From: Nemertoderma westbladi
Taxonomy: Eukaryota > Animalia > Xenacoelomorpha
Length of the DNA: 64,000 nucleotides
Reading direction: 5' to 3'
NCBI GenBank assembly: GCA_032718475.1
Contig: JAUCBJ010005935.1
Span: forward strand, 62,001 to 126,000
This document shows, piece after piece, positions 17,801 to 55,998 of this stretch (position 1 is its first letter; each line of letters begins with the position of its first letter). A model generated the notes under the pieces. It saw nothing but the letters and a program-made list of their open reading frames with translations, ran no database searches and had not been told where the DNA came from. The translations under genes were made by a program, and so were the position numbers.

Positions 17801-18753
17801 GAATTATCTGGAATAGATAATTCAACATGGAGTGAAGGTATATCACAGCATGGGCGGGGAAGTTTTGTTGTATATGGTGTTGGTGTAGGTGTTGTGAATG
17901 TAGCTGGGCATGATGTCGCTTTATATGTTGTTGGACAAGATACTGGAGTTGTTGTAGTTGTTGATTCAATGCAGTCTATTATGACATTGACTGATCCATA
18001 ACTATTGCAGTCATTGTTTGAGAATTTAAGTTGTAAATAAAACTCTTTGGTATCAAAACAGTCAAGCTCTTTCTTCAAAATTATCATGTAATCTTTTATT
18101 TCAAAATAATTGTTCTTTGGATCAGGGTTTATGAGATAAACAGATGGCAGTTTTCCTTGAAGTACTTCCGATATGTCCAATAATGATGTCGATATTGGTG
18201 AAGTATCTGGAATTTTTAATTCAACATGTAGTGAAGGTATATCACAGCATGGGCGGGGGAGTTTAGTTGTATATGGGGTTGGTGTAGGTGTTGTGATAGT
18301 AGCAGGACATGATGTCGCTTTATATGTAGTTGGACACGACACTGGCATATGTGTTGTTGTAATTTCTTTTCCGCATTCAACGTTGATCTTCATGGAGCCA
18401 TGCTGGAGGCAATTTCCATTTTTAAATGACAGTTGAAGATATATGTCATTAATGTCATGGCAATCGAGTTCTCTTACTAAGATTAATCTATTGAATTGTA
18501 TTTCAAAATACTTATGTTTAGGGTCTCTGTTTGTTATTTCTACACTGACTTCTGATTCTGGGAAATAGTCACCAAAATCCACAATTGTGGATAGGCCATA
18601 GCTATCAGGCACAGTGACTTCTGCGTTCAGTGTGGGGATGTGGCAACAGATAGGTGGTTGTGAAGTTGGGCATGGTGTAGGTACAATCACTGTCCCAGGT
18701 GCTTTGATATTCACTACCATAAACCCACTGCTTGGTGGTTCTAACGACTCTGC
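1..18753 (-). CDS. Giant coding exon 17 of a PCDH15/CDHR5-like mucin-cadherin; two arrays of 133-aa repeats around a unique cadherin/SEA-like core; open past the left window edge
   Basis: Acceptor tttag|GCA at 18753, starting AESLEPPSSGFMVVNIKAPG. The same minus frame reads open at 18753, across 8700-10860 (translated fully) and at position 1. An in-frame ATG near 18720 produces no ORF in the track, consistent with no stop inside the window. Cadherin motifs include NINDEFPRF, AQDAD and DTNDNPPQF. Confidence 0.9.
10745..18660 (-). repeat. Coding tandem array B: about 20 copies of the 399-bp (133-aa) unit
   Basis: Marker at 10991, 11390 ... 18173 with 399-bp spacing, plus a diverged founder-like copy at about 18360-18660 (CCHIPTLNAEVTVPDS...RELDCHD). 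Confidence 0.97.
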
Positions 18754-24280: not shown

Positions 24281-24792
24281 ATTGTGGGGCGAGCCACGAA
24301 GTTGGCGGAGCCTTAGCGAATTGACACTGTTAGGGGGTGGGTCAATTTATGCAAATAGTTGTCGTCGTCGTCGTCGTCGTCGTTGTCGTCGTCGTCGTTG
24401 TCGTCGTCGTTACGATTTTGACATGCTAATAACTTTGTCGGATTTAAAGCTGCCAAGTTGAAAATTTGTAGGTATCAATATGAGCAAAAGTTGAGATTTT
24501 TGAGAGACTTTCAGACACCATCAGTGCAATGGTCTCCCGCTAGAGGGCCACATGTCTAAACATTAAATGCCCTCCCATTTCTTTGCTTTTAATCCGTTTA
24601 AGCTGAAACTTGGCAGATATGTATTAGACCATTAGCTGTGACTTTCAAAGGAGGCGAATCCATCTGCAGTTCTCCAGTCTGCCGCTAGAGGGCCAACGTG
24701 ACTATTTGCATAAATTGACCTACCCCCTAACAGTGTCAATTCGCTAAGGCTCTGCCAACTTCGTGCTGCGCGAAGTCCCCACTTCGTGTACT
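24281..24792. mobile_element. Non-autonomous Helentron/DINE-like element with (GTC)n and internal inverted repeat
   Basis: Near-identical in reverse complement to 41975-42458; inverted repeat 24297-24358 vs 24703-24764; microsatellite at 24361-24410; terminal motif shared with 41450 and 61025. Confidence 0.65.
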
Positions 24793-27748: not shown

Positions 27749-28407
27749 TATGAAACCACTCATTCACCCAAAAACACCAATAATAAATTAAAAACTAAAT
27801 AAATTAAAATATGTAATATTTGATTGAAAAATTCACAATACCTGTAAGTACGAATTATTACAGCTACGATTTATATTTTATTTCCTTAAATTTCATTAAA
27901 GTCCATAGAAAATTATTAAAATTTTAAAATTATAATAGAAATGACGACAAGTAATGATAATAAAATTGAATGAAATTTTATTGGCATTGTAATAGTATTA
28001 AGTATTTTATTCAGTTAATATATAATATAATACTAATATAAAGAATTCGATTATCACTGTTTTTTTCCACTTTTCTTATAAAATACATATATATAGTTTA
28101 GGTCATGATACAGTACTGACATATATTAGTTATCACTTATCAGTGTAAATATATACACTGTTCATTTTATGTGGTGCCTTCGCGCAGTCTAATCACTTTT
28201 ACCCCTAGCGGTAGACTCTGAAAGTCTTTCAAATATATCACTTTTAGTCCTAGTAATGCCTACAAATTTTAAATTTGTTAGTTTTAGATCCGACAGAGTT
28301 ATTATCCAGTAAAAATCGTAAGGACGACATGACAATAACAAAATGTTGTTGTTGGTGTTGTTCATAGGTGATTGGGCGCAAGATACAAACTGCTAATGTC
28401 TACGAAC

Positions 28408-28778: not shown

Positions 28779-29102
28779 CTTGGCCTCAATCGTAATCTTA
28801 TACAGCGAAGTTTTCTCATAATCCGGAGAATTGGGTTCGACCAATTTAATCACACCAGTTTCGGAATCAATCGAGAAAAAATTCGGTTCGTCATTTCCGG
28901 CGTTGTCCTTTACCGCGGTAATGGAGTATGTAACCTCATTGTTAGGAGATGTAGCATCATTGTCTGTAGCCTGAACTGTAAAGACCTGCGTGAGGATGGT
29001 GGGGTCGGCGTTCTCCGGTAGATTAGTCTCGTAGGGGGTCCCAATGAATACCGGTTCATTGTCGTTCACATCAAGTAGATGGAACCGGATAATATATTCT
29101 AG
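28779..29102 (-). CDS. Cadherin exon 4
   Basis: cacag|LEYIIRFHLLDVNDNEPVF...LPENADP...VQATDND...FFSIDSETGVIKL...PDYEK...IEAK|gtaag; canonical EC domain. Confidence 0.96.
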
Positions 29103-29146
29103 CTGTGAAAAAATAAAAGGGCAGTAAAATATGTGTTTAAACTTCT

Positions 29147-32100
29147 GCATTCTTTATTGCTACAGTACCTGCTGGTCTGATTAGAGATTTGAGATATAAT
29201 ACTGCATTGTTGCTACAGTACCTGCTGGTTCGATTCTAGATTGGTGATATAATGCTGCATTGCTGCTACAGTACCGGCTGTGCGATTGGAGATTTGTGTT
29301 ATAAATCTGAATTGTTGCTACCGTACCTGTTGGTCCGATTGGAGATTAGTTATATAATGCTGCATTGTTGCTACCGTACCTGCTGGTCCGATTGGAAATT
29401 AGTGATATAAAGCGGATCAGCAGATATGGTAGCAACAATGTATTGTTGCTACCATATCTGCTGATCCGATTGGAGATTAGTAATATAAGGCTGCATTGTT
29501 GCTACAGTTCCTGCTGGTTCGATTGGAGATTACTGATATAAAGCTACATGTGGAAGCGCTATCGGCGCCCGGTCCCGGATCCACGGCCACGCACTATCCC
29601 GCTCGAGGGGTGAGCTGGAGAAGACTGAAGTGAAACTAGCTGCAGTATACCAGTATATTGTGTATTGAGATACATGAATAACAAATAATGATATGATACA
29701 ATCAGACAATGAAACTAATAACGAACTACCTACAAAACATGACTGACAACCCTACACCGGTAAGTCATCTCAATAACTAAACTGAATGATAACTGCTCAC
29801 TGCGCCCTGCCCCCAGGACTATATCCCTGACAGCTACCGTACAACCAGCTGTTCACACCCTAGGTGCTAACAAGATACTACTATATTATACCTACTTAAC
29901 CTATACAATACATACTAATCAGTCCAATTATACACCATCCCATAATACAATATCACATCCCCCCTTCTTAAAAAAAACTCGCCCACGAGTTTCTAGAACG
30001 CACAAACTACAAACCCCAAGTCTAATGACTACATCGACAAGTAAAGTCTACCTCAACGGCAGTATAGATACTGTATATGAAGCACGATACCAACAATACA
30101 TTCAACTAGCCTAAGGCCAATAATATCTAAATCGAAATTTCGTGCTGCATGTATCGTAAGCCAGTATGACTAAAGAATAACACGTACAACTCAATGAGTA
30201 ACCAAATAACACTATATCAAGCATATTGCAATCTATAAATCGCACCGTAAGTAACCGACCATAGTACAATCCATAAAATGTGTCACTGCCACAATAAATA
30301 AAGGCTATATAAGTAAATAATTAATACGTGTATCTATCACATGAAAATGTATCCATACAGTATCTATCATAAACATGTATCCATCCATACAGTATCTATC
30401 TATCCGTATCTTATGTAATAATAATACGTAATGACGTAACAAAAATATACAAAAAAATATATATGTTGGAGTTATGTACATAAGGTAAATAATAATACAT
30501 ACAGAATAGAGAATACTCTACAAAATGTACATAACTGAGGCACAAAATATCTCGTGGGCGAATAACGGGTGAGAGCCGAGCAATGGAACGGAATTTAAAA
30601 AAAATCACAATATCTAAATAATTCAGGATAACAATTTTTTTTCCAAACAAAAGTTATTCATTGTTAATAAATGCAATTTATCTATGTAGCCATGGTAACC
30701 AGCAAACAGTCAAGTCACATCGACTACGTCTCTATAATTTGCGTCAACGGTCAACAGTCGCTATCGTCACCGTCGTAGTCGTCCCCACTGTCATTCCCCC
30801 TACCTGTATCATCTCCCGTGGAGTTACTTTCTTCCCTATAGTATGGTTTTAAGTCCTTCACATTTACAATAATAAGTCGAGAACGTGGATTTGGTTTTCC
30901 CGATTTTCCCAACAGTTTAATGGCATAACTTGATTTACCAACCTGATCAACAATAGCATAAGGACCCCTAAACCTGAAGCTCAGCTTCGTATTCTTACCT
31001 TTGGTCGTCCTATCATAGTATAATACAGACTGCCCCTTAGTGTAGGTTCGAATGTTACTGCGTTGGCGCTTCCCCAGCTTACCGTCGTGGTATTGTTTCT
31101 GTTTAACCTGTGTAAGCCTAAGAGCTTCCCTGGCTATCCCATGGGCCCGCTCCAAACGAAACCTTAATTCGTCTGCGAATGTTGCTTCATCTGCTAGCAA
31201 GCTGTACGGCCGGGCTATCTGCGTGTCTACTTGTGTTGTCGCCTGTCGCCCATACATTAAAGAGTGTTCCTACCTAATCTGCTGGTCCGATTCTAGATTG
31301 GTGATATAATGCTGCATTGTTGCTACAATACCGGCTGGTTCGATTGGAGATTGGTGATATAATGCTGCATTGTTGCTACAGTATCTGCTGGACCGATTCT
31401 AGATTGGTGATATAATGGTGCATTGTTGCTACAGTAACGGCTGGTTCGATTGGAGATTGGTGATATAATGCTGCATTGTTGCTAAAGTATCTGCTGGCCC
31501 GATTGGAAATTAGTAATATAAGGCTGCATTGTTGCTACCGTACGTGCTGGTCCGATTGGAGATTAGTGATCTAAAGCTACATTGTTGCTACGGTATCTGC
31601 TGGTCCGGTTCTAGATTGGTAATATAATGCTGCATTGTTGCTACAGTAACGGCTGGCCCGATTGGAAATTAGTAATATAAGGCTGCATTGTTGCTACCGT
31701 ACGTGCTGGTCCGATTGGAGATTAGTGATATAAAGCTACATTGTTGATACCGTATCTGCTGGTCCGGTTCTAGATTGGTAATATAATGCTGCATTGTTGC
31801 TACAATACCGGCTGGTTCGATTGGAGATTGGTGATATAATGCTGCATTGTTTCTACAGTACCGGCTGGTTCGTTTGGAGATTGGTGATATAATGCTGCAT
31901 TTTTGCTACAGTATCTTATGGTTTGATTGGATATTGGTGATATAATGCTGCATTTTTGCTACAGTATCTTATGGTTCGATTGGATATTGGTGATATAATG
32001 CTGTATTGTTGCTACAGTATCCGCTGGCCCGATTGGAAATTAGTAATATAAGGCTGCATTGTTGCTACCGTACGTGCTGGTCCGATTGGAGATTAGTGAT

Positions 32101-35100
32101 ATAAAGCTACATTGTTGATACCGTATCTTCTGGTCCGGTTCTAGATTGGTAATATAATGCTGCATTGTTACTACAATACCCGCTGGTTCGATTGGAGATT
32201 GGTGATATAATGCTGCATTGTTTCTACAGTACCGGCTGGTTTGATTGGAGATTTGTGATATAATGCTGCATTTTTGCTACAGTATCTTATGGTTCGATTG
32301 GATATTGGTGATATAATGCTGCATTTTGCTACAGTATCTTATGGTTCGATTGGATATTGGTGATATAATGCTGTATTGTTGCTACAGTATCTGCTGGCCC
32401 GATTGGAAATTAGTATTATAAGGCTGCATTGTTGCTACCGTACGTGCTGGTCCGATTGGAGATTAGTGATATAAAGCTACATTGTTGATACCGTATCTGC
32501 TGGTCAGGTTCTAGATTGGTAATATAATGCTGCATTGTTGCTACAATACCGGCTGGTTCGATTGGAGATTGGTGATATGATGCTGCATTGTTTCTACAGT
32601 ACCGGCTGGTTCGATTGGAGATTGGTGATATAATGCTGCATTGTTGCTACAGTATCTTCTGGCCCGATTGGAAATTAGTAATATAAGGCTGCATTGTTGC
32701 TATCGTATCTGCTGGTCCGGTTCTAGATTAGTAATATAATGCTGCATTGTTGCTACAGTAACGGCTGGTTCGATTGGAGATTGGTGATATAATGCTGCAT
32801 TGTTGCTACAGTATCTGCTGGCCCGATTGGAAATTAGTAATATAAGGCTGCATTGTTGCTACCGTACGTGCTGGTCCAATTGGAGATTAGTGATATAAAG
32901 CTACATTGTTGCTACCGTATCTGCTGGTCCGGTTCTAGATCGGTAATATAAGGCTGCATTGTTGCTACAGTAACTACTGGATCGATTGGAGATTAGTGAT
33001 ATAAAGCTACATTGTTGATACCGTATCTGCTGGTCCGGTTCTAGATCGGTAATATAATGCTGCATTGTTGCTACAATACCGGCTGGTTCGATTGGAGATT
33101 GGTGATATAATGCTGCATTTTTGCTACAGTATCTTATGGCTCGATTGGATATTGGTGATATAATGCTGCATTGTTTCTACAGTACCGGCTGGTTGGATTG
33201 GAGATTGGTGATATAATGCTGCATTATTTCTACAGTACCGGCTGGTTCGATTGGAGATTGGTGATATAAAGCTGCATTTTTGCTACAGTATCTTATGGTT
33301 CGATTGGATATTGGTGATATAATGCTGCATTTCTACAGTACCGGCTGGTTCGATTGGAGATTGGTGATATAATGCTGCATTGTTGCTACAGTATCTGCTG
33401 GCCCGATTGGAAATTAGTAATATAAGGCTGCATTGTTGCTATCGTATCTGCTGGTCCGGTTCTAGATTGGTAATATAATGCTGCATTGTTGCTACAGTAA
33501 CGGCTGGTTCGATTGGAAATTGGTGATATAATGCTGCATTGTTGCTACAGTATCTGCTGGCCCGATTGGAAATTAGTAATATAAGGCTGCATTGTTGCTA
33601 CCGTACGTGCTGGTCCGATTGGAGATTAGTGATGTAAAGCTACATTGTTGCCACCGTATCTGCTGATCCGATTGGAGATTAGTAATATAAGGCTGCATTG
33701 TTGCTACAGTACCTGTTGGATCGATTGGAGATTAGTGATCTAAAGCTACATTGTTGCTACGGTATCTGCTGGTCCGGTTCTAGATTGGTAATATAAAGCT
33801 ACATTGTTGCTACCGTATCTGCTGGTCCAATTCTAGATTGGTGATATAATGCTGCATTGTTGCTACAGTAACGGCTGGTTCGATTGGAGATTGGTGATAT
33901 AATTCTGCATTGTTGCTACCGTACGTGCTGGTCCGATTGGAGATTAGTGATGTAAAGCTACATTGTTGCCACCGTATCTGCTGATCCGATTGGAGATTAG
34001 TAATATAAGGCTGCATTGTTGCTACAGTACCTGTTGGATCGATTGGAGATTAGTGATCTAAAGCTACATTGTTGCTACGGTATCTGCTGGTCCGGTTCTA
34101 GATTGGTAATATAAAGCTACATTGTTGCTACCGTATCTGCTGGTCCAATTCTAGATTGGTGATATAATGCTGCATTGTTGCTACAGTAACGGCTGGTTCG
34201 ATTGGAGATTGGTGATATAATTCTGCATTGTTGCTACCGTACGTGCTGGTCCGATTGGAGATTAGTGATGTAAAGCTACATTGTTGCCACCGTATCTGCT
34301 GATCCGATTGGAGATTAGTAATATAAGGCTGCATTGTTGCTACAGTACCTGTTGGATCGATTGGAGATTAGTGATCTAAAGCTACATTGTTGCTACGGTA
34401 TCTGCTGGTCCGGTTCTAGATTGGTAATATAATGCTGCATTGTTGCTACCGTACGTGCTGGTCCGATTGGAGATTAGTGATGTAAAGCTACATTGTTGCC
34501 ACCGTATCTGCTGATCCGATTGGAGATTAGTAATATAAGGCTGCATTGTTGCTACAGTACCTGTTGGATCGATTGGAGATTAGTGATCTAAAGCTACATT
34601 GTTGCTACGGTATCTGCTGGTCCGGTTCTAGATTGGTAATATAAAGCTACATTGTTGCTACCGTATCTGCTGGTCCAATTCTAGATTGGTGATATAATGC
34701 TGCATTGTTGCTACAGTAACGGCTGGTTCGATTGGAGATTGGTGATATAATTCTGCATTGTTGCTACCGTACGTGCTGGTCCGATTGGAGATTAGTGATG
34801 TAAAGCTACATTGTTGCCACCGTATCTGCTGATCCGATTGGAGATTAGTAATATAAGGCTGCATTGTTTCTACAGTACCTGTTGGATCGATTGGAGATTA
34901 GTGATCTAAAGCTACATTGTTGCTACGGTATCTGCTGGTCCGGTTCTAGATTGGTAATATAAAGCTACATTGTTGCTACCGTATCTGCTGGTCCAATTCT
35001 AGATTGGTGATATAATGCTGCATTGTTGCTACAGTAACGGCTGGTTCGATTGGAGATTGGTGATATAATTCTGCATTGTTGCTACAGTATCTGCTGGCCC

Positions 35101-38100
35101 GATTGGAAATTAGTAATATAAGGCTGCATTGTTGCTATCGTATCTGCTGATCCGGTTCTAGATCGGTAATATAAGGCTGCATTGTTGCTACAGTACCTGC
35201 TGGATCGATTGGAGATTAGTGATATAAAGCTACATTGTTGACACCGTATCTGCTGGTCCGGTTCTAGATTGGTAATATAATGCTGCATTGTTTCTACAGT
35301 ACCGGCTGGTCCGATTGGAGATTAGTGATATAAAGCTACATTGTTGCTACCGTATCTGCTGGTCCGGTTCTAGATCGGTAATATAATGCTGCATTGTTGC
35401 TACAATACCGGCTGGTTCGATTGGAGATTGGTGATATAATGCTGCGGTTCGATTGGAGATTGGTGATATAATGCTGCATTGTTGCTACAGTATCTGCTGG
35501 CCCGATTGGAAATTAGTAATATAAGGCTGCATTGTTGCTATCGTATCTGCTGGTCCGGTTCTGGATCGGTAATATAATGCTGCATTGTTGCTACAATACC
35601 GGCTGGTTGGATTGGAGATTGGTGATATAATGCTGCATTATTTCTACAGTACCGGCTGGTTCGATTGGAGATTGGTGATATAAAGCTGCATTTTTGCTAC
35701 AGTATCTTATGGTTCGATTGGATATTGGTGATATAATGCTGCATTTCTACAGTACCGGCTGGTTCGATTGGAGATTGGTGATATAATGCTGCATTGTTGC
35801 TACAATACCGGCTGGTTCGATTGGAGATTGGTGATATGATGCTGCATTGTTTCTACAGTACCGGCTGGTTCGATTGGAGATTGGTGATATAATGCTGCAT
35901 TGTTGCTACAGTATCTTCTGTCCCGATTGGAAATTAGTAATATAAGGCTGCATTGTTGCTATCGTATCTGCTGGTCCGGTTCTAGATTAGTAATATAATG
36001 CTGCATTGTTGCTACAGTAACGGCTGGTTCGATTGGAGATTGGTGATATAATGCTGCATTGTTGCTACAGTATCTGCTGGCCCGATTGGAAATTAGTAAT
36101 ATAAGGCTGCATTGTTGCTACCGTACGTGCTGGTCCAATTGGAGATTAGTGATGTAAGGCTGCATTGTTGCTACAGTACCTGCTGGATCGATTGGAGATT
36201 AGTGATATAAAGCTACATTGTTGCTACCGTATCTGCTGGTCCGGTTCTAGATCGGTAATATAAGGCTGCATTGTTGCTACAGTAACTACTGGATCGATTG
36301 GAGATTAGTGATATAAAGCTACATTGTTGATACCGTATCTGCTGGTCCGGTTCTAGATCGGTAATATAATGCTGCATTGTTGCTACAATACCGGCTGGTT
36401 CGATTGGAGATTGGTGATATAATGCTGCATTTTTGCTACAGTATCTTATGGTTCGATTGGATATTGGTGATATAATGCTGCATTGTTTCTACAGTACCGG
36501 CTGGTTGGATTGGAGATTGGTGATATAATGCTGCATTATTTCTACAGTAGCGGCTGGTTCGATTGGAGATTGGTGATATAAAGCTGCATTTTTGCTACAG
36601 TATCTTATGGTTCGATTGGATATTGGTGATATAATGCTGCATTTCTACAGTACCGGCTGGTTCGATTGGAGATTGGTGATATAATGCTGCATTGTTGCTA
36701 CAGTATCTGCTGGCCCGATTGGAAATTAGTAATATAAGGCTGCATTGTTGCTATCGTATCTGCTGGTCCGGTTCTAGATTGGTAATATAATGCTGCATTG
36801 TTGCTACAGTAACGGCTGGTTCGATTGGAAATTGGTGATATAATGCTGCATTGTTGCTACAGTATCTGCTGGCCCGATTGGAAATTAGTAATATAAGGCT
36901 GCATTGTTGCTACCGTACGTGCTGGTCCGATTGGAGATTAGTGATGTAAAGCTACATTGTTGCCACCGTATCTGCTGATCCGATTGGAGATTAGTAATAT
37001 AAGGCTGCATTGTTGCTACAGTACCTGTTGGATCGATTGGAGATTAGTGATGTAAAGCTACATTGTTGCTACAGTATCTGCTGGCCCGATTGGAAATTAG
37101 TAATATAAGGCTGCATTGTTGCTACCGTACGTGCTGGTCCGATTGGAGATTAGTGATGTAAAGCTACATTGTTGCCACCGTATCTGCTGATCCGATTGGA
37201 GATTAGTAATATAAGGCTGCATTGTTGCTACAGTACCTGTTGGATCGATTGGAGATTAGTGACCTAAAGCTACATTGTTGCTACCGTATCTGCTGGTCCA
37301 ATTCTAGATTGGTGATATAATGCTGCATTGTTGCTACAGTAACGGCTGGTTCGATTGGAGATTGGTGATATAATTCTGCATTGTTGCTACAGTATCTGCT
37401 GGCCCGATTGGAAATTAGTAATATAAGGCTGCATTGTTGCTATCGTATCTGCTGATCCGGTTCTAGATCGGTAATATAAGGCTGCATTGTTGCTACTGTA
37501 CCTGCTGGATCGATTGGAGATTAGTGATATAAAGCTACATTGTTGACACCGTATCTGCTGGTCCGGTTCTAGATTGGTAATATAATGCTGCATTGTTTCT
37601 ACAGTACCGGCTGGTCCGATTGGAGATTAGTGATATAAAGCTACATTGTTGCTACCGTATCTGCTGGTCCGGTTCTAGATCGGTAATATAATGCTGCATT
37701 GTTGCTACAATACCGGCTGGTTCGATTGGAGATTGGTGATATAATGCTGCATTTTTGCTACAGTACCGGCTGGTTCGATTGGAGATTGGTGATATAATGC
37801 TGCATTGTTGCTACAGTATCTGCTGGCCCGATTGGAAATTAGTAATATAAGGCTGCATTGTTGCTATCGTATCTGCTGGTCCGGTTCTGGATCGGTAATA
37901 TAATGCTGCATTGTTGCTACAATACCGGCTGGTTGGATTGGAGATTGGTGATATAATGCTGCATTATTTCTACAGTACCGGCTGGTTCGATTGGAGATTG
38001 GTGATATAAAGCTGCATTTTTGCTACAGTATCTTATGGTTCGATTGGATATTGGTGATATAATGCTGCATTTCTACAGTACCGGCTGGTTCGATTGGAGA

Positions 38101-40790
38101 TTGGTGATATAATGCTGCATTGTTGCTACAGTATCTGCTGGACCGATTGGAAATTAGTAATATAAGGCTGCATTGTTGCTATCGTATCTGCTGGTCCGGT
38201 TCTAGATTGGTGATATAATGCTGCATTGTTGCTACAGTAACGGCTGGTTCGATTGAAGATTGGTGATATAATGCTGCATTGTTGCTACAGTATCTGCTGG
38301 CCCGATTGGAAATAAGTAATATAAGGCTGCATTGTTACTACCGTACGTGCTGGTCCGATTGGAGATTAGTGATGTAAAGCTACATTGTTGCCACCGTATC
38401 TGCTGATCCGATTGGAGATTAGTAATATAAGGCTGCATTGTTACTACAGTACCTGCTGGATCGATTGGAGATTAGTGATCTAAAGCTACATTGTTGCTAC
38501 CGTATCTGCTGATCCGATTCTAGATTGGTGATATAATGCTGCATTGTTGCTACAGTAACGGCTGGTTCGATTGGAGATTGGTGATATAATGCTGCATTGT
38601 TGCTACAGTATCTGCTGGCCCGATTGGAAATTAGTAATATAAGGCTGCATTGTTGCTACCGTACGTGCTGGTCCGATTGGAGATTAGTGATATAATGCTA
38701 CATTGTTGATACCGTATCTGCTGGTCCGGTTCTAGATTGGTAATATAATGCTGCATTGTTGCTACAATACCGGCTGGTTCGATTGGAGATTGGTGATATA
38801 ATGCTGTATTGTTTCTACAGCACCGGCTGGTTCGATTGGAGATTGGTGATATAATGCTGCATTTTTGCTACAGTATCTTATGGTTCGATTGGATATTGGT
38901 GATATAATGCTGCATTGTTTCTACAGTACCGGATGGTCCGATTGGAGATTAGTGATATAAAGCTACATTGTTGCTACCGTATCTGCTGGTCCGGTTCTAG
39001 ATCGGTAATATAATGCTGCATTGTTGCTACAATACCGGCTGGTTCGATTGGAGATTGGTGATATAATGCTGCATTTTTGCTACAGTATCTTATGGTTCGA
39101 TTGGATATTGGTGATATAATGCTGCATTGTTTCTACAGTACCGGCTGGTTCGATTGGAGATTGGTGATATAATGCTGCATTGTTGCTACAGTATCTGCTG
39201 GCCCGATTGGAAATTAGTAATATAAGGCTGCATTGTTGCTATCGTATCTGCTGGTCCAGTTCTAGATTGGTAATATAATGCTGCATTGTTGCTACAATAC
39301 CGGCTGGTTGGATTGGAGATTGGTGATATAATGCTGCATTTTTTCTACAGTACCGGCTGGTTCGATTGGAGATTGGTGATATAATGCTGCATTTTTGCTA
39401 CAGTATCTTATGGTTCGATTGGATATTGATGATATAATGCTGCATTGTTTCTACAGTACCGGCTGGTTCGATTGGAGATTGGTGATATAATGCTGCATTG
39501 TTGCTACAGTACCGGCTGGTCCGATTGGAGATTAGTGATATAAAGCTACATTGTTGCTACCGTATCTGCTGGTCCGGTTCTAGGTCGGTAATATAATGCT
39601 GCATTGTTGCTACAATATCGGCTGGTTCGATTGGAGATTGGTGATATAATGCTGCATTGTTTCTACAGTACCGGCTGGTTCGATTGGAGATTGGTGATAT
39701 AATGCTGCATTGTTGCTACAGTATCTGCTGGCCCGATTGGAAATTAGTAATATAAGGCTGCATTGTTGCTATCGTATCTGCTGGTCCGGTTCTAGATTGG
39801 TAATATAATGCTGTATTGTTGCTACAATACCGGCTGGTTGGATTGGAGATTGGTGATATAATGCTGCATTGTTTCTACAGTATCTGCTGGCCCGATTGGA
39901 AATTAGTAATATTACGCTGCATTGTTGCTACCGTATCTTCTGGTCCGGTTCTAGATTGGTAATATAATGCTGCATTGTTGCTACAATACCAGCTGGTTCG
40001 ATTGCAGATTGGTGATATAATGCTGCATTGTTTCTACAGTACCGGCTGGTTCGAATGGAGATTGGTGATATAATGCTGCATTTTTGTTACAGTATCTTAT
40101 GGTTCGATTGGATATTGGTGATATAATGCTGCATTGTTTCTACAGTACCGGCTGGTTCGATTGGAGTTTGGTGATATAATGCTGCATTGTTGCTACAGTA
40201 TCTGCTGGCCCGATTGGAAATTAGTAATATAAGGCTGCATTGTTGCTATCGTATCTGCTGTCCGGTTCTAGATTGGTGATATAATACTGCATTGTTGCTA
40301 AAGCAGTACCTGCTGGTTCGATTGGAGATTAGTGAGATAAAGCTGCATTGTTGCTACCGTACGTGCTGGTCCGATTGGAGATTAGTAATATAATGCTGCA
40401 TTGCTGCTACTGTACGTGCTGGTCCGATTGGAGATTAGTGATATAAAGCTGAATTGTTGTTACAGTACCTGCTGGTTCGATTGGAAATTATATAGTTATA
40501 TAAAGCTGCATTGTTGCTACCGTACGTGTTGGTCCGATTGGAGATTAGTAATATAATGCTGCATTGCTGCTACTGTACGTGCTGGTCCGATTGGAGATTA
40601 GTGATATAAAGCTGAATTGTTGTTACAGTACCTGCTGGTTCGATTGGAAATTATATAGTTATATAAAGCTGCATTGTTGCTACCGTACGTGTTGGTCCGA
40701 TTGGAGATTAGTGATATAAAGCTGCATTGTTGCTACCGTACCTGCTGGTTCGATTGGAGATTGGTGCATATGAGCTTCATTGTTGCAGTC
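29147..40790. repeat. 53-bp intronic satellite, roughly 185 copies, interrupted at 29549-31268
   Basis: Unit gattggagattggtgatataatgctgcattgttgctacagtaccggctggttc and variants; local higher-order repeats, e.g. 318 bp between identical ORFs at 33810 and 34128. Copy number estimated from length. Confidence 0.97.
29549..31268 (-). mobile_element. 3' remnant of a Ty3/Gypsy LTR retrotransposon (integrase C-terminus, PPT, 3' LTR)
   Basis: ORF 30751-31257 has LMYGR... and the GPY/F motif KLSFRFRGPYAIV. Minus-strand PPT aagaagggggga (29958-29969) directly precedes a TGTG...CACA-bounded 409-bp LTR (29549-29957). Confidence 0.85.
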
Positions 40791-40861
40791 GGAGGTACCG
40801 CTTCACGGTCCGGGGCCTTGAACATTTCGATCCGTTGTTCTCCAGCCTTTATTCGAATGTG
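40742..40861 (-). CDS. Cadherin exon 3 (EC1, C-terminal half)
   Basis: ttgcag|HIRIKAGEQRIEMFKAPDREAVPPTATMKLICTNLQSNQQ|gtacgg; DRE motif; joins exon 4 in phase 0. Confidence 0.87.
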
Positions 40862-41446
40862 CTGCAATAAATAAATAATCATTAAATTAAAGAGGTGCCA
40901 AAATATTACAAACCAATCAATACCGGTATATGATCTGATAAATATTATCGTTTAGTCGTATCATGCATTGCAATGGCCTTCATTTCAAAGGAAACAAAAT
41001 ATTGAAAGTATTTTAGATTTCTGTAAGAAACACTGAATATTAAATATACACGGAAAAACAAATGTATCACACCCTAAAACAGTTCAGAGTATTTCTGAAA
41101 GCCCAAAAACTATCTTTGGACGATAAAATTAGTGAAACTCATCCAGCCGCTGCTGGTTTCAAAGCATCACAGCGCGCAAAGAAACGGAAACTTATGTTAT
41201 GAGATTCTCCGTGGTATTACTAGTACAGGCCTACACCGATTCCGGAAACCTGGCGCCACTATCACTATAACGCTATTTCAGCTCCAACTTGTCACAACTT
41301 TTGCCACAAGCAGGGCAGGTATCTTTCTACAATCAACCTGATGCTAATACTGTACGTGTACATGGCTATTCGAAACAAGATACCGACGGTTATCAAGTAT
41401 GTAGTAGAACAGTAGGTACTTTAAAACATAGGAGTTACGTCCATAG

Positions 41447-42291
41447 TAAGACACGAAGTGGGGCCTTCGCGCAGCACGTGACTTAATTATACTTAGTTAT
41501 ACATTTCGCCCTCTAGCGGCAGACTGGAGGACTCCAGACCGTTTACTGCCCACCAAAGACTCAGGCCGACTTCTACTACATATCTGCTACGTTTCAGCTT
41601 GAACGGATCATAAATAACGAGATGGGAGAAAGATTTCACTTTCAAACATTTCGCCCTCTAGCGGCAGACTGAAGAACTGCACACGGATTAGCCTTCAATT
41701 CAATTCAATTCAATTCCTTCTTTCAAAGTCACAGCTAATGGTCTAGTACATATCTGCCAAATTTCAGCATAAATGGATTAAAAGCAAAGAAATGGGAGGA
41801 CATTTAACGTTTAGACATGTGGCCCTCTAGCAGGAGACTATTGCTCTGATGGTGTCTGAAAGTCTCTCAAACGTCTCAACTTTAGCTCATATTGATACCT
41901 ACAAATTTTCAACTTGGCAGCTTTAAATCCGACAAAGTTATTAGCATGTCAAAATCGTAACGACGACAACGATTTCACTTTCAGACCTTTGGCCCTCTAG
42001 CGGCAGACTGGAGAACTGCAGATGGATTCGCCTCCTTTGAAAGTCACAGCTAATGGTCTAATACATATCTGCCAAGTTTCAGCTTAAACGGATTAAAAGC
42101 AAATAAATGGGAGGGCATTTAATGTTTAGACATGTGGCCCTCTAGCGGGAGACCATTGCACTGATGGTGTCTGAAAGTCTCTCAAAAATCTCAACTTTTG
42201 CTCATATTGATACCTACAAATTTTCAACTTGGCAGCTTTAAATCCGACAAAGTTATTAGCATGTCAAAATCGTAACGACGACGACGACGAC

Positions 42292-42378
<87 letters not shown>

Positions 42379-42458
42379 AACTATTTGCATAAATTGACCC
42401 ACCCCCTAACAGTGTCAATTCGCTAAGGCTCCGCCAACTTCGTGGCTCGCCCCACAAG
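41447..42458. mobile_element. Helentron/DINE-like element with internal tandem subunits and (GAC)n tract
   Basis: Longer inverted relative of the 24.3-kb element; (GAC)n at about 42274-42378; repeated gccctctagc motif. Confidence 0.65.
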
Positions 42459-42558: not shown

Positions 42559-42749
42559 CTCCGTTGCATCGGCGTCGCTTGCTGTATCATCGTGTACCAA
42601 CTTGAGTGTAAAGTCTGTGTCTAGAATTCCAGATAATTCGAAGTTATCGCCGATATCCCTTGGAACATTGCCGTTCTCGTTCACATTAACTTCCAACTCG
42701 GCTCCTCCACTAAACGGCGACCCCTGTTCCGCGAAGCAAGGCAGCTGAG
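42559..42749 (-). CDS. Cadherin exon 2 (EC1, N-terminal half)
   Basis: ttccag|CT QLPCFAEQGSPFSGGAELEVNVNENGNVPRDIGDNFELSG...DATE|gtagag; phases 1/0. Confidence 0.82.
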
Positions 42750-43751: not shown

Positions 43752-45607
43752 CCAATGGTTGCGAACTTTGTTCCAATGGTTGCGAACTTTGTTCCAATGG
43801 TTGCGAACTTTGTTCCAATGAGAGTAGTCCAACTGCGAACATTGTTCCAATGGTTGCGAACTTTGTTCCAATGGTTGCGAACTTAGTTCCAATGGTAGCG
43901 AACTTAGTTTCAATGGTTGCGAACTTTGTGCCAATGGTTGCGAACTTTGTTCCAATGGTTGCGAACTTTGTTCCAATGGTCGCGAACTTAGTTCTAATGG
44001 TTGCGAACTTTGTTCCAATGGTTGCGAACTTTGTTCCAATGAGAGTAGTCCAACTGCGAACATTGTTCCAATGGTTGCGAACTTAGTTTCAATGGTTGCG
44101 AACTTTGTGCCAATGGTTGCGAACTTTGTTCCAATGGTTGCGAACTTTGTGCCAATGGTTGCGAACTTTGTTCCAAAGGGTTGCGAACTTTGTTCCAATG
44201 GTAGCGAACTTTGTTCCAATGGTCGCGAACTTAGTTCTAATGGTTGCGAACTTTGTTCCAATGGTTGCGAACTTTGTTCCAATGAGAGTAGTCCAACTGC
44301 GAACATTGTTCCAATGGTTGCGAACTTTGTTCCAATGGTTGCGAACTTAGTTCCAATGGTAGCGAACTTAGTTTCAATGGTTGCGAACTTTGTGCCAATG
44401 GTTGCGAACTTTGTTCCAATGGTTGCGAACTTTGTTCCAATGGTCGCGAACTTAGTTTCAATGGTTGCGAACTTTGTGCCAATGGTTGCGAACTTTGTTC
44501 CAATGGTTGCGAACTTAGTTCCAATGGTTGCGAACTTAGTTCCAATGGTTGCGAACTTTGTGCCAATGGTTGCGAACTTTGTTCCAATGGTTGCGAACTT
44601 TGTTCCAATGAGAGTAGTCCAACTGCGAACATTGTTCCAATGGTTGCGAACTTTGTTCCAATGGTTGCGAACTTAGTTCCAATGGTAGCGAACTTAGTTT
44701 CAATGGTTGCGAACTTTGTGCCAATGGTTGCGAACTTTGTTCCAATGGTTGCGAACTTTGTTCCAATGGTCGCGAACTTAGTTCTAATGGTTGCGAACTT
44801 TGTTCCAATGGTTGCGAACTTTGTTCCAATGAGAGTAGTCCAACTGCGAACATTGTTCCAATGGTTGCGAACTTAGTTTCAATGGTTGCGAACTTTGTGC
44901 CAATGGTTGCGAACTTTGTTCCAATGGTTGCGAACTTTGTGCCAATGGTTGCGAACTTTGTTCCAATGGTTGCGAACTTTGTTCCAATGGTAGCGAACTT
45001 TGTTCCAATGGTCGCGAACTTAGTTCTAATGGTTGCGAACTTTGTTCCAATGGTTGCGAACTTTGTTCCAATGAGAGTAGTCCAACTGCGAACATTGTTC
45101 CAATGGTTGCGAACTTTGTTCCAATGGTTGCGAACTTAGTTCCAATGGTAGCGAACTTAGTTTCAATGGTTGCGAACTTTGTGCCAATGGTTGCGAACTT
45201 TGTTCCAATGGTTGCGAACTTTGTTCCAATGGTCGCGAACTTAGTTTCAATGGTTGCGAACTTTGTGCCAATGGTTGCGAACTTTGTTCCAATGGTTGCG
45301 AACTTAGTTCCAATGGTTGCGAACTTAGTTCCAATGGTTGCGAACTTTGTGCCAATGGTTGCGAACTTTGTTCCAATGGTTGCGAACTTTGTTCCAATGA
45401 GAGTAGTTCAACTGCGAATATTGTTCCAATGGTCGCGAACTTAGTTCCAATGGTTGCGAACTTAGTTCCAATGGTAGCGAACTTAGTTTCAATGGTTGCG
45501 AACTTTGTGCCAATGGTTGCGAACTTTGTACCAATGGTTGCGAACATTGTTCCAATGGTTGCGAACTTAGTTCCTATGGTTGCGAACTTAGTTCCAACTT
45601 AGTTCCA
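43752..45607. repeat. 21-bp satellite (ccaatggttgcgaactttgtt) with ~789-bp higher-order structure
   Basis: Direct tandem units; variant marker gagagtagt at 43820, 44041, 44284, 44610, 44831, 45073, 45399. Confidence 0.96.
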
Positions 45608-45710
45608 CATGTGATAATGCAAGCTAAGGTGATCAGGACGCAACCTGTCGATTCTCTATAAAGATCATCCCACACCGTAGTCTTTACACCATACGTGATG
45701 TAAGTACTTT

Positions 45711-48700
45711 GTAAGTACGTTAAGGTGGTGTATGTAAGTTATTTAGTGTGCCTGAGATGTAAGTACGTTAGTGTGGTGTATGTAAGTTATTTAGTGTGCC
45801 TGAGATGTAAGTACGTTAAGGTGGTGTATGTAAGTTATTTAGTGTGTTATAGATGTGAGTACTTTAGTGTAGTGTATGTAAGTTATTTAGTGTGCCTGAG
45901 ATGTAAGTACGTTAAGGTGGTGTATGTAAGTTATTTAGTGTGCCTGAGATGTAAGTATGTTAAGGTGGTGTATGTAAGTTATTTTGTGTGTTATAGATGT
46001 GAGTACTTTAGTGTGGTGTATGTAAGTTATTTAGTGTGCCTGAGATGTAAGTACGTTAAGGTGGTGTATGTAAGTTATTTAGTGTACCTGAGATGTAAGT
46101 ACGTTAATGTGGTGTATGTATGTTATTTAGTGTGCCTGAGATGTAAGTACGTTAAGGTGGTGTATGTAAGTTATTTAGTGTGCCTGGGATGTAAGTACGT
46201 TAAGGTGGTGTATGTAAGTTATTTAGTGTGTTATAGATGTGAGTACTTTAGTGTGGTGTATTTAAGTTATTTAGTGTGCCTGAGATGTAAGTACGTTAAG
46301 GTGGTGTATGTAAGTTATTTAGTGTGCCTGAGATGTAAGTACGTTAAGGTGGTGTATGTAAGTTATTTAGTGTGCCTGGGATATAAGTACGTTAAGGTGG
46401 TGTATGTAAGTTATTTAGTGTGTTATAGATGTGAGTACTTTAGTGTGGTGTATTTAAGTTATTTAGTGTGCCTGAGATGTAAGTACGTTAAGGTGGTGTA
46501 TGTAAGTTATTTAGTGTGCCTGAGATGTAAGTACGTTAAGGTGGTGTATGTAAGTTATTTAGTGTGCCTGAGATGTAAGTACGTTAAGGTGGTGTATGTA
46601 AGTTATTTAGTGTGCCTGAGATGTAAGTACGTAAGTTATTTAGTGTGCCTGAGATGTAAGTACGTTAAGGTGGTGTATGTAAGTTATTTATTGTGCTATA
46701 GATGTGAGTACTTTAGTGTGGTGTATTTAAGTTATTTAGTGTGCCTGAGATGTAAGTATGTTAAGGTGGTGTATGTAAGTTATTTAGTGTGCCTGAGATG
46801 TAAGTACGTTAAGGTGGTGTATGTAAGTTATTTAGTGTGCCTGGGATGTAAGTACGTTAAGGTGGTGTATGTAAGTTATTTAGTGTGTTATAGATGTGAG
46901 TACTTTAGTGTGGTGTATTTAAGTTATTTAGTGTGCCTGAGATGTAAGTACGTTAAGGTGGTGTATGTAAGTTATTTAGTGTGCCTGAGATGTAAGTACG
47001 TTAATGTGGTGTATGTAAGTTATTTAGTGTGCCTGAGATGTAAGTACGTTAAGGTGGTTTATGTAAGTTATTTAGTGTCCCTGAGATGTAAGTACGTTAA
47101 GGTGGTGTATGTACGTTATTTAGTGTGCCTGAGATGTAAGTACGTTAGTGTGGTGTATGTAAGTTATTTAGTGTTCCTGAGATGTAAGTACGTTAAGGTG
47201 GTGTATGTAAATTATTTAGTGTGCCTGAGATGTAAGTACGTTAGTGTGGTGTATGTAAATTATTTAGTGTGCCTGAAATGTAAGTACGTTAGTGTGGTGT
47301 ATGTAAGTTATTAAGTGTGCCTGAGATGTAAGTACGTTAAGGTGGTGTATGTAAGTTATTTAGTGTGCCTGAAATGTAAGTACGTTAAGGTGGTGTATGT
47401 TAGTTATTTAGTGTGCCTGAGATGTAAGTACGTTAGTGTGGTGCAGGTAAGTTATTTAGTGTGCCTGAGATGTAAGTACGTTAGTGTGGTGTATGTAAGT
47501 TATTTAGTGTGCCTGAGATGTAAGAACGTTAGTGTGGTGTATGTAAGTTATTTAGTGTGCCTGAGATGTAAGTACGTTAAGGTGGTGTATGTAAGTTATT
47601 TAGTGTGCCTGAGATGTAAGTACGTTAAGGTGGTGTATGTAAGTTATTTAGTGTGCCTGAGATGTAAGTACGTTAAGGTGGTGTATGTAAGTTATTTAGT
47701 GTGCCTGAGATGTAAGTACGTTAAGGTGATGTATGTAAGTTATTTAGTGTGCCTGAGATGTAAGTACGTTAAGGTGGTTTATGTAAGTTATTTAGTGTGC
47801 CTGAGATGTAAGTACGTTAAGGTGGTTTATGTAAGTTATTTAGTGTGCCTGAGATGTAAGTACGTTAAGGTGGTTTATGTAAGTTATTTAGTGTGCCTGA
47901 GATGTAAGTACGTTAATGTGGTGTATGTAAGTTATTTAGTGTGCCTGAGATGTAAGTACGTTAGTGTGGTGTATGTAAGTTATTTAGTGTGCCTGAGATG
48001 TAAGTACGTTAAGGTGGTGTATGTAAGTTATTTAGTGTGCCTGAGATGTAAGTACGTTAAGGTGGTGTATGTAAGTTATTTAGTGTGCCTGAGATGTAAG
48101 TACGTTAAGGTGGTTTATGTAAGTTATTTAGTGTGCCTGAGATGTAAGTACGTTAGTGTGGTGTATGTAAGTTATTTAGTGTGCCTGAGATGTAAGTACG
48201 TTAAGGTGGTGTATGTACGTTATTTAGTGTGCCTGAGATGTAAGTACGTTAGTGTGGTGTATGTAAGTTATTTAGTGTGCCTGAGATGTAAGTACGTAAG
48301 TGTGGTGCAGGTAAGTTATTTAGTGTGCCTGAGATGTAAGTACGTTAGTGTGGTGTATGTAAATTATTTAGTGTGCCTGAGATGTAAGTACGTAAGTGTG
48401 GTGCAGGTAAGTTATTTAGTGTGCCTGAGATGTAAGTACGTTAGTGTGGTGTATGTAAGTTATTTAGTGTGCCTGAGATGTAAGTACGTAAGTGTGGTGC
48501 AGGTAAGTTATTTAGTGTGCCTGAGATGTAAGTACGTTAGTGTGGTGTATGTAAGTTATTTAGTGTGCCTGAGATGTAAGTACGTTAAGGTGGTGTATGT
48601 AAATTATTTAGTGTGCCTGAGATGTAAGTACGTTAGTGTGGTGTATGTAAATTATTTAGTGTGCCTGAAATGTAAGTACGTTAGTGTGGTGTATGTAAGT

Positions 48701-48846
48701 TATTTAGTGTGCCTGAAATGTAAGTACGTTAAGGTGGTGTATGTTAGTTATTTAGTGTGCCTGAGATGTAAGTACGTAAGTGTGGTGCAGGTAAGTTATT
48801 TAGTGTGCTTGAGATGTAAGTACGTTAGTGTGGTGTATGTATGTTA
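45711..48846. repeat. 48-bp satellite (2 x 24-bp halves), about 65 copies
   Basis: Unit gtaagtacgttaaggtggtgtatgtaagttatttagtgtgcctgagat. Confidence 0.97.
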
Positions 48847-49141
48847 TTCCCGACTGTTTTTCAACGGGATTCCGAAGTATAAATTGTGAAGTAAATTTGT
48901 TCAATATCTGGTGAACAGTTGCACCAGAACATACATTTATTGATTATAATATTGAATTAATATGTAAACCATTTATCTTCTAATATTTTAGCACTGTGCA
49001 ATAAGTCAGGCTGTATCTGTATAAAGGAACACACTATTTTCCTTAATATTTCTTTTTCGTTGCTATTGATACTAACAAAAGGTTTGTAACTGTCACTGTA
49101 GCTACATGTTATATGTAACGCTGTGAACAACAAACATCTCC

Positions 49142-49940
49142 CTTAATACAACAACCAATTTTAGCCTCATCTAACTTATTTTTTTTTAATTTCAAACATA
49201 TGCTACGAAATTTGGTATGATGTTAGTTTTTACTGCTGGCAGGGCAGGATTTTTAAATTTCTGTGCTATTTCGATACAACAAGCCGATAAAAATCGTCTA
49301 TTTGACAATAATATATATAGCCACCTCCATCGGATTTATTTCTCGTCTTTGAAATATAATCTAGATATCTTCATCTGCAGATTCCGAATCTGAAAACCGT
49401 TTTAAATTTCACAAGAAATTGCCAAAGATATTATCAAAATACTACGCTGTAAATTTTGAGACGTAAATCGCTATAATTCTAATGTTTTTTGTCTTCATTC
49501 TAGAATATTAATTATTATTTAGCTGAGCGTTTAAAACTCTACATGTTGTTTCTTCATTGCGCGTAATTAATATAACTTCAGTAAATATAATCATATTATA
49601 TTATAATATTATAAATATAATATCTCCGGAAGTTATTGGTGAAATTGAAAGTTGTTTCGGATTCGGAATCTACAGATGAAGGCTGTTCTAATGATATCTA
49701 GATTACATTCCAAAGGCCAAAAATAAAACTGACGGAGGTGGCTAAAAATTGTCAAATAGCCAATTTTATCGGCTTGTTGTATCGAAATAGCTCAAATATT
49801 GAAAATATCTTACTTGCCGGCCAGGCCAACAGTAAGAAAAGTTGTCGAACTATCATCGTACCAAATTTCATAGCATGTGATTGAAATTTGAAAACAATTT
49901 AGGGGTGGGGGGGTACTTACTAGAAATGGTTGTGGTATTT
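49142..49940. mobile_element. Foldback/MITE with long imperfect inverted repeats, TTAA-like ends
   Basis: 49190-49411 (gctatttcgatacaacaagccgataaaa; tagccacctcc; gattccgaatc) is the reverse complement of 49639-49888. Confidence 0.7.
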
Positions 49941-52144: not shown

Positions 52145-52252
52145 GATGGAACGTACGTACATAAGTATTAATTAATTAATTATATATTTTATGATTTTTG
52201 TATTGTTGTATTGTTGTATATTAATATTAATATTGTTCAAGAGAATTAGCTG

Positions 52253-55200: not shown

Positions 55201-55468
55201 GTCAGTTGAAGAATTCAAGAGTTGGTTTTTCAAAGCGTTACCAGAATCTGCTGCGGGTAAGAAGTTATCCTTCCAGGTTGTAGGTAACATGAGAAACGAT
55301 CCCAACTTCATGGATAATCTTGAGGAAAGTCTACCGGAGAAGGGGATCACATTGGAAACAGGACGCCATGGTGATAACGATACAAAAGACGTAGCAACCG
55401 GTCGCAAATTCATTAAAAATATTATGGAGTTTCAAAACAAACTTCGTCTTTACCCAGTGTCTATATAA
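52253..55468 (+). CDS. NRDC: Nardilysin (M16A metalloendopeptidase), single uninterrupted 1071-aa ORF
   Basis: AALCVGAGSFDDPDGLPGLAHFLEH-type region (HxxEH), ENAYTDHERTVF, third ligand in DSEF, LSSLLGHEGEGS, LRTKEQLGY. An N-terminal insertion before the catalytic motif favours nardilysin over IDE. AATAAA at 55478. Confidence 0.9.
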   Translation: MSSKNLLADIPLNYSEPVIKGPADNKHYKPFTLEGSGIKVLLIQDVVKFGKPIERPSLESLFKKNNEKQGLSSVEDDVETVNDVSGSSSSSSSGTSCLLSDKYIRNSSILTSEEKKAAVALCVGAGSFDDPDGLPGLAHFLEHMLFMGSKKYPKENSWETFIDEHGESENAYTDHERTVFHFSIQQEFLKEALERFASYFISPLFDKDSMKKELKALDSEFQMKSTTDCHRQEQVLQTTVKPSHPMSRFFWGNIETLSTIPEREGINVRDRIVKFYEDIYKKRLITICVQSLHPLETVEKWVTKSFSKFHANLETKDENIERVFLKKYPFIRESFNKILHIRPIFDHNKICVTWSIDSTFQFYKEKPLVFLSSLLGHEGEGSIINYLRKRLWAVEIVAGQTDSGFEDNSFQSLFHVDIFLTHDGLKNVMTVINIVHQYINMLNRCQPYDWLWSDIANISQLEFVFRSETDPEINVDNIACAMQKYNPEDYLIGDYLVLTSGSEVVDTVLHLLTPRAANYRLVSKHYFTNKFNLVEPWFGTQYGVEDIPEDQNNTWETDQQLEYLHLPPQNKYIPHDFAIKWDDNTCNSYDADELIKYRKKPTLICDNLGCQVWFQPDLKFRVPKAYVKFHLMTNFNYRAPFEFVTGQLLAMIIMQRLAPVLYNARSADMNYRVYTGHLGLVLSLHGYNDKLLLLMKTVIRFIAEFECCQEVFDVAKKMFARECQNAMRNPQILCKEMRLRVLPQSYWNTRDQYQILESIHLSDLRTYLNRLLHNLHINGLIQGNLTKEDALEYVDVVISQLQLGVLDKWAIPHLRVYEIPWGQHVLRVRNPMAGDVNSVTSNYYQFGSSTIDTLLMMEILTDFLVEPVSEILRTKEQLGYDIRCEMRPIFGTIGFHIQVIYQIDRHSPNHVDNKIEECLTTMKRKIRLMSKHMFGELVEGLISSKVAEENSLGEEVSRNWREILNRTYLFNRRVHEISHLTKLSVEEFKSWFFKALPESAAGKKLSFQVVGNMRNDPNFMDNLEESLPEKGITLETGRHGDNDTKDVATGRKFIKNIMEFQNKLRLYPVSI

Positions 55469-55698: not shown

Positions 55699-55998
55699 AC
55701 GGTATGCTTTAATGGTAGCTTGACTTTGACTAACACATTTGTAGATGAGTAGTTATGGACTACAACACTGAAGGAAATAGTTGGTATATATTCGATTCGT
55801 AATCATAATATCGTTGTTATGCCGGAATTCTTATGTTAGTCACTAAAAACCTAGGTGTAGGGTTCATAGGAACAAAGTTCGAATCCTATTGGAACAAAGT
55901 TCGAATCCTATTGGAACAAAGTTCACAACTATTGGTACAAAGTTAGCAACCCATTTGAAAAAAGTTCACAAAAGAAGGTTTTGGAACAAAGTACCGTA
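55699..55998. mobile_element. Small TACGG...CCGTA-bounded element carrying inverted copies of the 21-bp satellite unit
   Basis: ttggaacaaagttcgaatccta-type repeats at 55868-55992 are the reverse complement of the 43.7-45.6 kb unit; ends tacggta / taccgta. Confidence 0.45.

Follow-up and report, generated by a model that had tools for sequence, protein, structure and literature searches.

The cadherin gene and its array-bearing intron

The window analysed here is a stretch of 64,000 nucleotides from Nemertoderma westbladi (contig JAUCBJ010005935.1, positions 62,001 to 126,000), whose minus strand carries a cadherin gene with one intron built mainly from tandem copies of its own exon-intron junction. 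The host gene reads as an intact Cad99C-like cadherin. In a hand-built model of 16 exons, running from 42749 to the window end, the 7,066 codons contain no stop and 15 of 15 introns are GT-AG.

Searched alone, the exon at 40742-40861 proved too short and matched no Pfam family and no solved structure. Joined with its neighbours, it gave a gap-free alignment across its 3' junction to EC1 of insect cadherin-99C proteins, in which a DR motif and one cysteine are retained. Because of this alignment and these residues, together with the intact open reading frame (ORF), 40742-40861 is read as a genuine coding exon; the intron that follows it therefore spans 40741-29103. The name 'exon 3', given to it in the initial annotation, presupposes one upstream exon that is not confidently placed. 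A putative signal-peptide exon 1, in the right phase and with a GTAAGA donor, lies at 49815-49871 on the minus strand. A protein search with the exon on the other side of the intron (exon 4) returned 282 cadherins, with at most 48% identity among the 120 matches listed. With 11,639 nt the array-bearing intron is the longest of the 15; the other 14 measure 143-1,771 nt, and none of them carries a copy of its own exon ends.

Anatomy of the array

The repeat unit measures 53 nt and consists of 8 nt from the donor side and the last 45 nt of exon 40742-40861, an anatomy that bears out the proposed amplification of a splice junction. Decomposition into units yielded 190 rows (184 full-length units and partials, one row being the exon itself) in the order exon end, 179 units down to 31279, a break and about 7 further units down to 29154. 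Tandem Repeats Finder reported 178.9 copies at 31277-40786 and 4.8 plus 2.0 copies at 29157-29549, and a motif of the unit matched 160 times in the window, always within 29224-40717, and never in 100 shuffles. The initial count of about 185 tandem junction copies was thereby confirmed; copy number and array length are those of the assembled window, and the short contigs of other runs break inside the array. The satellite accounts for 9,861 of the 11,639 nt of the intron (85%). It begins at the true donor, as first described, with the exon ending at 40742 and the array starting at 40741. It also ends just short of the acceptor, although the last partial unit stops at 29154, which is 51 nt and not about 45 bp before the acceptor at 29103. 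The array had been taken to be continuous, but a 1.7-kb retroelement fragment splits it (Table 1). A search of 29000-41000 against Rfam gave no match.

Splice sites were scored with donor and acceptor matrices built from the cadherin gene's own sites, acceptors being scored leave-one-out. The score of the predicted real donor falls inside the range of the gene's other donors, and 13 of the 15 donors of the gene have a G at +5. The AG/GT is intact at 18 of the 185 internal junctions, namely at 3 of the first 8, at 11 of 170 in the interior and at 4 of 7 in the tail, in keeping with the initial impression that intact copies lie near both ends and sporadically inside. 'Intact' applies to the AG/GT as such and does not denote copies of the real donor in the main array: 14 of its 178 internal junctions keep AG/GT, and none of the 178 combines it with a G at +5. 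The exact nonamer of the real donor recurs at two junctions, both in the tail, and at none in the main array. Read-through from an internal donor meets a TAG at the third intronic codon, as had been noted. A CTAAT lies within 30 nt upstream of 75 of the 185 junctions and of 15 of the 18 intact ones; the presence of this branch-like motif was thus correctly observed, but it is a derived variant, the exon having CCAAT.

Table 1. Coordinates of the features of the array-bearing intron and its flanking exons (window positions).
Feature	Positions	Strand	Remarks
Upstream coding exon ('exon 2')	42559..42749	-	First half of cadherin domain EC1; in the 16-exon model
Coding exon ('exon 3')	40742..40861	-	Second half of EC1; 120 nt long, both ends in phase 0
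Exonic part of the repeat unit	40742..40786	-	3'-terminal 45 nt of exon 3
Predicted real donor CAG/GTACGG	40736..40744	-	First and strongest junction of the array; score 8.1
Main array	31277..40741	-	179 units (53 nt each) arranged in higher-order blocks, with lags 3, 4, 6, 10, 14, 16
12-nt filler	31265..31276	.	Between array and truncated retroelement end
5'-truncated LTR-retroelement fragment (LTR, long terminal repeat)	29549..31264	-	Integrase C-terminal SH3 region; ends in CA; splits the array
Tail array	29154..29548	-	About 7 diverged units, separated from the main array by the insertion; AG/GT at 4/7 junctions
30-bp inverted duplication of a unit junction (hairpin)	29410..29471	.	Arms 97% complementary, 2 nt apart; z = -13
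Exact copy of the real donor 9-mer	29374..29382	-	In the tail
Exact copy of the real donor 9-mer	29321..29329	-	In the tail
66-nt intron end	29103..29168	-	Last donor copy, unique sequence, T-tract, acceptor (score 13.1)
Downstream coding exon ('exon 4')	28779..29102	-	End of EC1 and EC2; Pfam Cadherin E 8e-12; 140 solved-structure sequences matched

The edges of the array were compared with contigs of several runs. The contig at the exon-side edge showed no difference in runs X1 and X3, and the contig at the acceptor-side edge, which reaches the last units, none in X1 and X3 and two in X2, so that two samples agree exactly with the window at both edges. As one of these samples may itself be the source of the window, this amounts to one independent confirmation that the array edges are not an assembly artefact. 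Run X5, which bears the same species label, covered repeats only and X6 covered nothing. Two observations hint weakly that the unit is local to this gene. Where a contig with units has a loose end, this continues only into further unit variants or into the exon (19 of the 26 loose ends shown). Summed depth of the unit was 65- and 124-fold that of the unique exon contig, compared with more than 5,000 for a nearby dispersed element, figures that do not give a true copy number. Within the 64-kb window the unit is confined to the cadherin intron. Its motif found no match in metagenome contigs; a search of these contigs with exon 4 hit 13 loci, 12 of them with 29-40% identity and one matching over 16 residues. 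The unit was absent from all 13, and no intron orthologous to the present one came to light.

Relation to known junction repeats

Tandem repeats of exon-intron boundaries, termed mirages, have been described in the amphioxus genes Adh3, TnC, PGBD5 and the globins BflGb6 and BflGb9 (PMC3087553, PMC3902484). Their units measure 10-160 bp and contain AG/GT in many but not all cases, no effect on splicing was seen, and concerted evolution acts inside the arrays with the borders excluded (PMC3087553). By its architecture the array described here is the same kind of repeat, at the large end of the range. Its tandem unit spans a boundary of the host gene itself, the terminal unit being the genuine boundary (known here by sequence); 53 nt lies within the size range, and AG/GT is kept in some units and lost in others. 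Concerted evolution with excluded edges is likewise apparent, with nearest neighbours differing by 0.45 within the main array, by 1.22 at the 5' edge and by 4.0 in the tail. Unlike the globin cases, which have 3-6 units, the array has about 185 and is split by a retroelement, and its host is non-cephalochordate-like and without close annotated relative. Moreover, the loss of the splice signal was measured here and found to be the most eroded part of the unit, a property for which no test was found in the available sections of PMC3087553 and PMC3902484.

In humans, donor-spanning minisatellites of 5-25 copies are known from F7 IVS7 (37 bp, 5-9 copies), 6-16 (25 pseudo-sites), CBS IVS13 (15-20), lamin B2 and PDGF; the first donor wins, and in 6-16 and CBS the two nearest pseudo-sites are also used (PMC1557585). 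A survey of repeats at human exon-intron boundaries is available as well (PMC2812944). As in F7, the boundary between exon and donor lies within the first unit; the intron thus contains the donor over and over again, and the first one is expected to win. Three differences separate the two cases. The pseudo-donors of F7 are identical to the real donor, which holds here for 2 of 185 junctions (0/178 in the main array, 2/7 in the tail); the present unit is mostly exonic (45 of 53 nt), with a copy number about ten times higher; and splicing was shown in F7, whereas here it is predicted from sequence.

The proposed use of internal junctions as splice sites

The initial annotation likened each unit to a mini-intron and raised the possibility of recursive splicing, a reading that closer inspection of the unit ends did not support. 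That units begin with GT and end in AG is no evidence for mini-introns, because any tandem duplication across AG/GT yields such ends. Tandem duplication across AG/GT with GT...AG units is also the basis of the Rogers model of intron gain (summarised in PMC3087553). In that model the duplicated segment makes up the whole intron and the following exon begins with the duplicated GT. Here, by contrast, an existing intron was lengthened and no new one arose; its final 51 nt are unique and include an acceptor of their own, and the following exon begins with CTAG.

Like the ratchet points of Drosophila, which are juxtaposed and highly conserved acceptor-donor pairs (PMC8605326), the array has AG directly next to GT within a long intron (at 18 of 185 junctions, over 11.6 kb), with a next donor about 50 nt downstream. 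It departs from them in its acceptor half, which lacks a T-tract, and in its weak donor half; moreover the motif, far from being conserved, is the least conserved window of the unit.

A functional recursive acceptor needs a pyrimidine tract. Among the 185 junctions, 107 end in AG, and these have 0-2 T residues at positions -15 to -4, compared with 5-9 in 16 real acceptors. Their acceptor scores range from -19.7 to -3.9 against 0.1 to 17.6 for real acceptors, so that all 107 fall below the weakest of them. On this anatomical ground it is unlikely that internal copies work as mini-introns.

Erosion of the donor

To score erosion, the ancestral state was taken from the exon and from the donor where the array still shows it. 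Retention was scored on 176 junctions, those at one broken unit pair being masked. The AG/GT window keeps its ancestral state in 14 of 176 junctions (8%), compared with 33-97% in all 41 non-overlapping 4-nt windows. It is the most eroded of the 53 windows of the unit, level with one that overlaps it, whichever base is taken as ancestral at +5. Column and event permutations gave P values of 0.012-0.014 for 175 junction-centred units and 0.022-0.025 for the 86 distinct units. A tree of the units separates a CCG, a CAC and a +1 A lineage, so the real donor was lost by way of three lineages. All 60 main-array junctions with a G at +5 are broken at -1 or +1, and all 14 intact ones are without this G. 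Junctions of the main array that still bear GT score -1.4 to 5.3, as against 8.1 for the first donor.

Chance expectations were obtained from a simple neutral simulation of our own, with block duplication, deletion and mutation; runs were matched on diversity. The observed erosion of the AG/GT window had a probability of 0.061 (3,477 of 24,103 runs), and of 0.005 when no column was near fixation, as is observed (977 runs). When a penalty was placed on the duplication of intact junctions, the observed state became 5- to 10-fold likelier than under neutrality: its probability was 0.065 in the neutral case and 0.38 and 0.67 with the penalty, and that of a stricter pattern 0.007 compared with 0.037 and 0.034.

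Several observations weigh against selection on the donor. Enrichment of substitutions at the junction, proposed earlier as a test, was not observed, parsimony placing 15 of 151 changes at -2 to +2 where 11.4 are expected (P = 0.17), and the T at +2 is unchanged throughout the main array. Three or four founder mutations underlie the signal, all at a single locus chosen because it looked odd, and in 64% of the matched neutral runs at least one window is eroded to this degree. Second hits, several of them frequent, struck junctions that were already dead, which donor selection cannot explain. Intact junctions are commonest at the edges (7/15 versus 11/170), where competition should peak, an excess that neutral turnover also produced in the simulation, and two exact donors survive 224 and 277 nt before the intron end. 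At least one column outside the junction and a small block of insertions and deletions differ between the exon and all units; since the ancestral state is fully lost at such a column, complete loss happens without splicing too. Lastly, the silent donors of F7 are identical and have not eroded (PMC1557585). The bias therefore concerns which lineages multiplied and not how often the site mutated. For the suggested selection against cryptic sites, the eroded junction stands and the expected excess of substitutions does not.

Competing explanations

The explanation to which we give an even chance is that of a mirage-type minisatellite in which the first donor is likely the sole one used and selection for a broken donor probably decided which copies multiplied. 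In this scheme the first donor, the strongest within the exon's reach, would be joined to 29103, the sole strong acceptor flanking the satellite, to give a normal mRNA. We infer this splicing because the gene is intact and because silent junction copies have precedents in F7 and in the amphioxus mirages (PMC1557585, PMC3087553, PMC3902484). Use of an internal donor would lead to an early stop. Lineages with A>C at -2, G>C at -1, G>A at +1 or G>T at +5 would then have been free to expand, a step for which the arguments on the two sides roughly balance, and the same balance applies to the corollary that full-strength donor lineages were not. Selection against competing donors as such is likewise a matter of about even odds. 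The array itself would be a passenger without function of its own.

The account that differs least from this one keeps the origin and the silent splicing and replaces the filter by neutral erosion: a few lineages drifted up by unequal exchange, and three chanced to carry junction changes. It is a serious candidate, if somewhat short of an even chance. It accommodates the absence of enriched substitutions, the edge retention, which was reproduced without selection, the second hits on dead junctions and the identical donors kept in human arrays (PMC1557585). Retention of 8% was reached in a given window in 6% of neutral runs and in some window far more often. Less easily accommodated are the exact coincidence of the most eroded window with the splice site and the loss by several lineages instead of one near-fixed change, a pattern rare in neutral runs (0.5-0.9%). 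A local mutation hot-spot at the junction, such as a quasi-palindrome prone to template switching, is scarcely credible. The G>C change at -1 does create a perfect 6-nt palindrome and the tail does hold an inverted duplication of a junction, yet the other two founder changes improve no palindrome, dimers of the unit fold no better than shuffles (z 0.3-0.8) and change counts at the junction are not raised. RNA folding does not hide the junctions.

Two further explanations assign the internal copies a role in splicing. As regulated decoys, the nearest weak copies would be used at some rate, and the stop at the third codon would tune expression through nonsense-mediated decay (NMD). GT is indeed kept at all of the first 8 internal junctions, every extension runs into TAG, and human 6-16 and CBS do use their two nearest pseudo-sites (PMC1557585). 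These 8 junctions nevertheless score 0.3-3.1, compared with 8.1 for the first donor; there is no sign of conservation, a functionless leak would look identical, and the lack of a strong donor in the main array speaks against a maintained decoy, which makes this explanation very unlikely. A ladder of mini-introns or recursive sites, in which intact CTAAT...CAG/GT junctions are used one after another, or in which splicing first takes out the 66-nt end and the CAG thus regenerated then serves as acceptor, would make use of the 18 junctions with AG/GT, 15 of them with CTAAT upstream, and would sit in the longest of the gene's introns. We consider it extremely improbable, given the missing T-tract and the 107 of 107 AG-ending junctions that score below the weakest real acceptor. 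In addition, 90% of the junctions are broken, the 11 intact interior copies form one lineage and have donors without +5 G, and a 53-nt unit is shorter than every intron of the gene (at least 143 nt).

Should the donor loss reflect selection, it would represent purifying selection on the internal sequence of a satellite via splicing, and the array would offer a cheap, genome-only test of the protection that 'first donor wins' provides against hundreds of decoys. It is conceivable, though rather doubtful, that the spliceosome acts as a sieve in general and that junction repeats reach hundreds of copies only from crippled-donor variants, a rule that would hold across species. In that case the lineages of large mirage arrays would document the single changes that suffice to silence a 5' splice site in the organism concerned (here -2, -1, +1 and +5), and the present array would amount to a natural experiment on selection at splice sites. 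The array is an unusually large example of a known oddity, a short intron grown about 175-fold from its own junction and one retroelement; its interest is carried by the suggestive sign that only splice-crippled copies could multiply. A literature search for work on how splice signals in junction arrays erode or come under selection turned up no such study; subscription papers lie mostly outside its coverage.

Origin and history of the array

A donor copy opens the final 66 nt of the intron. These have 12 nt in common with the unit start and then continue as unique sequence with a T-tract and the strong acceptor; they are probably the remnant of the ancestral intron. The point at which the units switch from intron to exon lies where intron +9 and exon -45 have GCAA in common (6 of 7 nt), a match that may mark the duplication breakpoint. 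In the simplest history, a 53-nt tandem duplication mediated by 4-7 nt of microhomology would have occurred in an intron of about 66 nt, followed by early divergence of the founder unit and a split into lineages. An LTR element would then have been inserted into the array and have lost its 5' part, after which the upstream part would have grown by block duplication and the tail frozen. The split into lineages shows in a mean difference of 8.5 of 53 positions in pairwise comparison of the units. Recent growth of the upstream part by block duplication is suggested by the small differences between nearest neighbours there and by periodicity peaks at 3, 4, 6, 10, 14 and 16 units.

Over the stretch 40757-40777, one substitution and a small block of compensating insertions and deletions set every unit apart from the exon. 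As the exon keeps a cysteine conserved in cadherin-99C and all units share the changes, the founder unit would have drifted before amplification. The inverted duplication in the tail appears to be a trace of template switching.

The LTR fragment matched Pfam SH3_Tf2-1 with an E-value of 8e-7, slightly below the curated cut-off. It is dispersed, with about ten times single-copy depth and with other flanks and a longer 5' part elsewhere in the runs. In three runs the element contigs depart from the window sequence after 31264, and among the contigs listed none bridges the retroelement ends.

Surroundings of the array

Two other satellites lie upstream of the array. The one at 45710-48848 has a 48-bp unit, a dimer of 24-nt halves; its plus strand, which is antisense to the cadherin gene, contains the donor-like word GTAAGT 114 times, and no parent exon was found for it. 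The other, at 43752-45597, has a 21-bp unit with higher-order structure, and related degenerate copies occur on the other strand at 55865-55971. If the candidate exon 1 is right, both satellites fall in intron 1. A very abundant short dispersed element was found in three introns of the cadherin gene (41450-42420, 24310-24750 and 28170-28340); it ends near a GAC microsatellite, and its summed contig depth reaches thousands of times that of a single copy.

On the plus strand, 52250-55465 contains an uninterrupted ORF of 1,072 codons for a nardilysin-like protein (peptidase M16). The 120 relatives listed are 31-38% identical to it, and the animal is therefore without close annotated relative in the collection. 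Broken pieces of a piggyBac-like transposase (Pfam DDE_Tnp_1_7) follow on the same strand at 58324-60070.

At the other end of the window, the minus strand of 1-18753 forms one uninterrupted open exon, which measures 18.7 kb or more (6,251 codons) and runs off the window. It consists mostly of 133-amino-acid repeats rich in Cys, Thr and Pro, with 40 CC[DH]IP motifs, in two blocks that flank a cadherin domain; the repeat has no convincing Pfam match. This exon is possibly more unusual than the junction array itself, and with the 15 exons upstream of it would encode a Cad99C-like protein of more than 7,000 amino acids.

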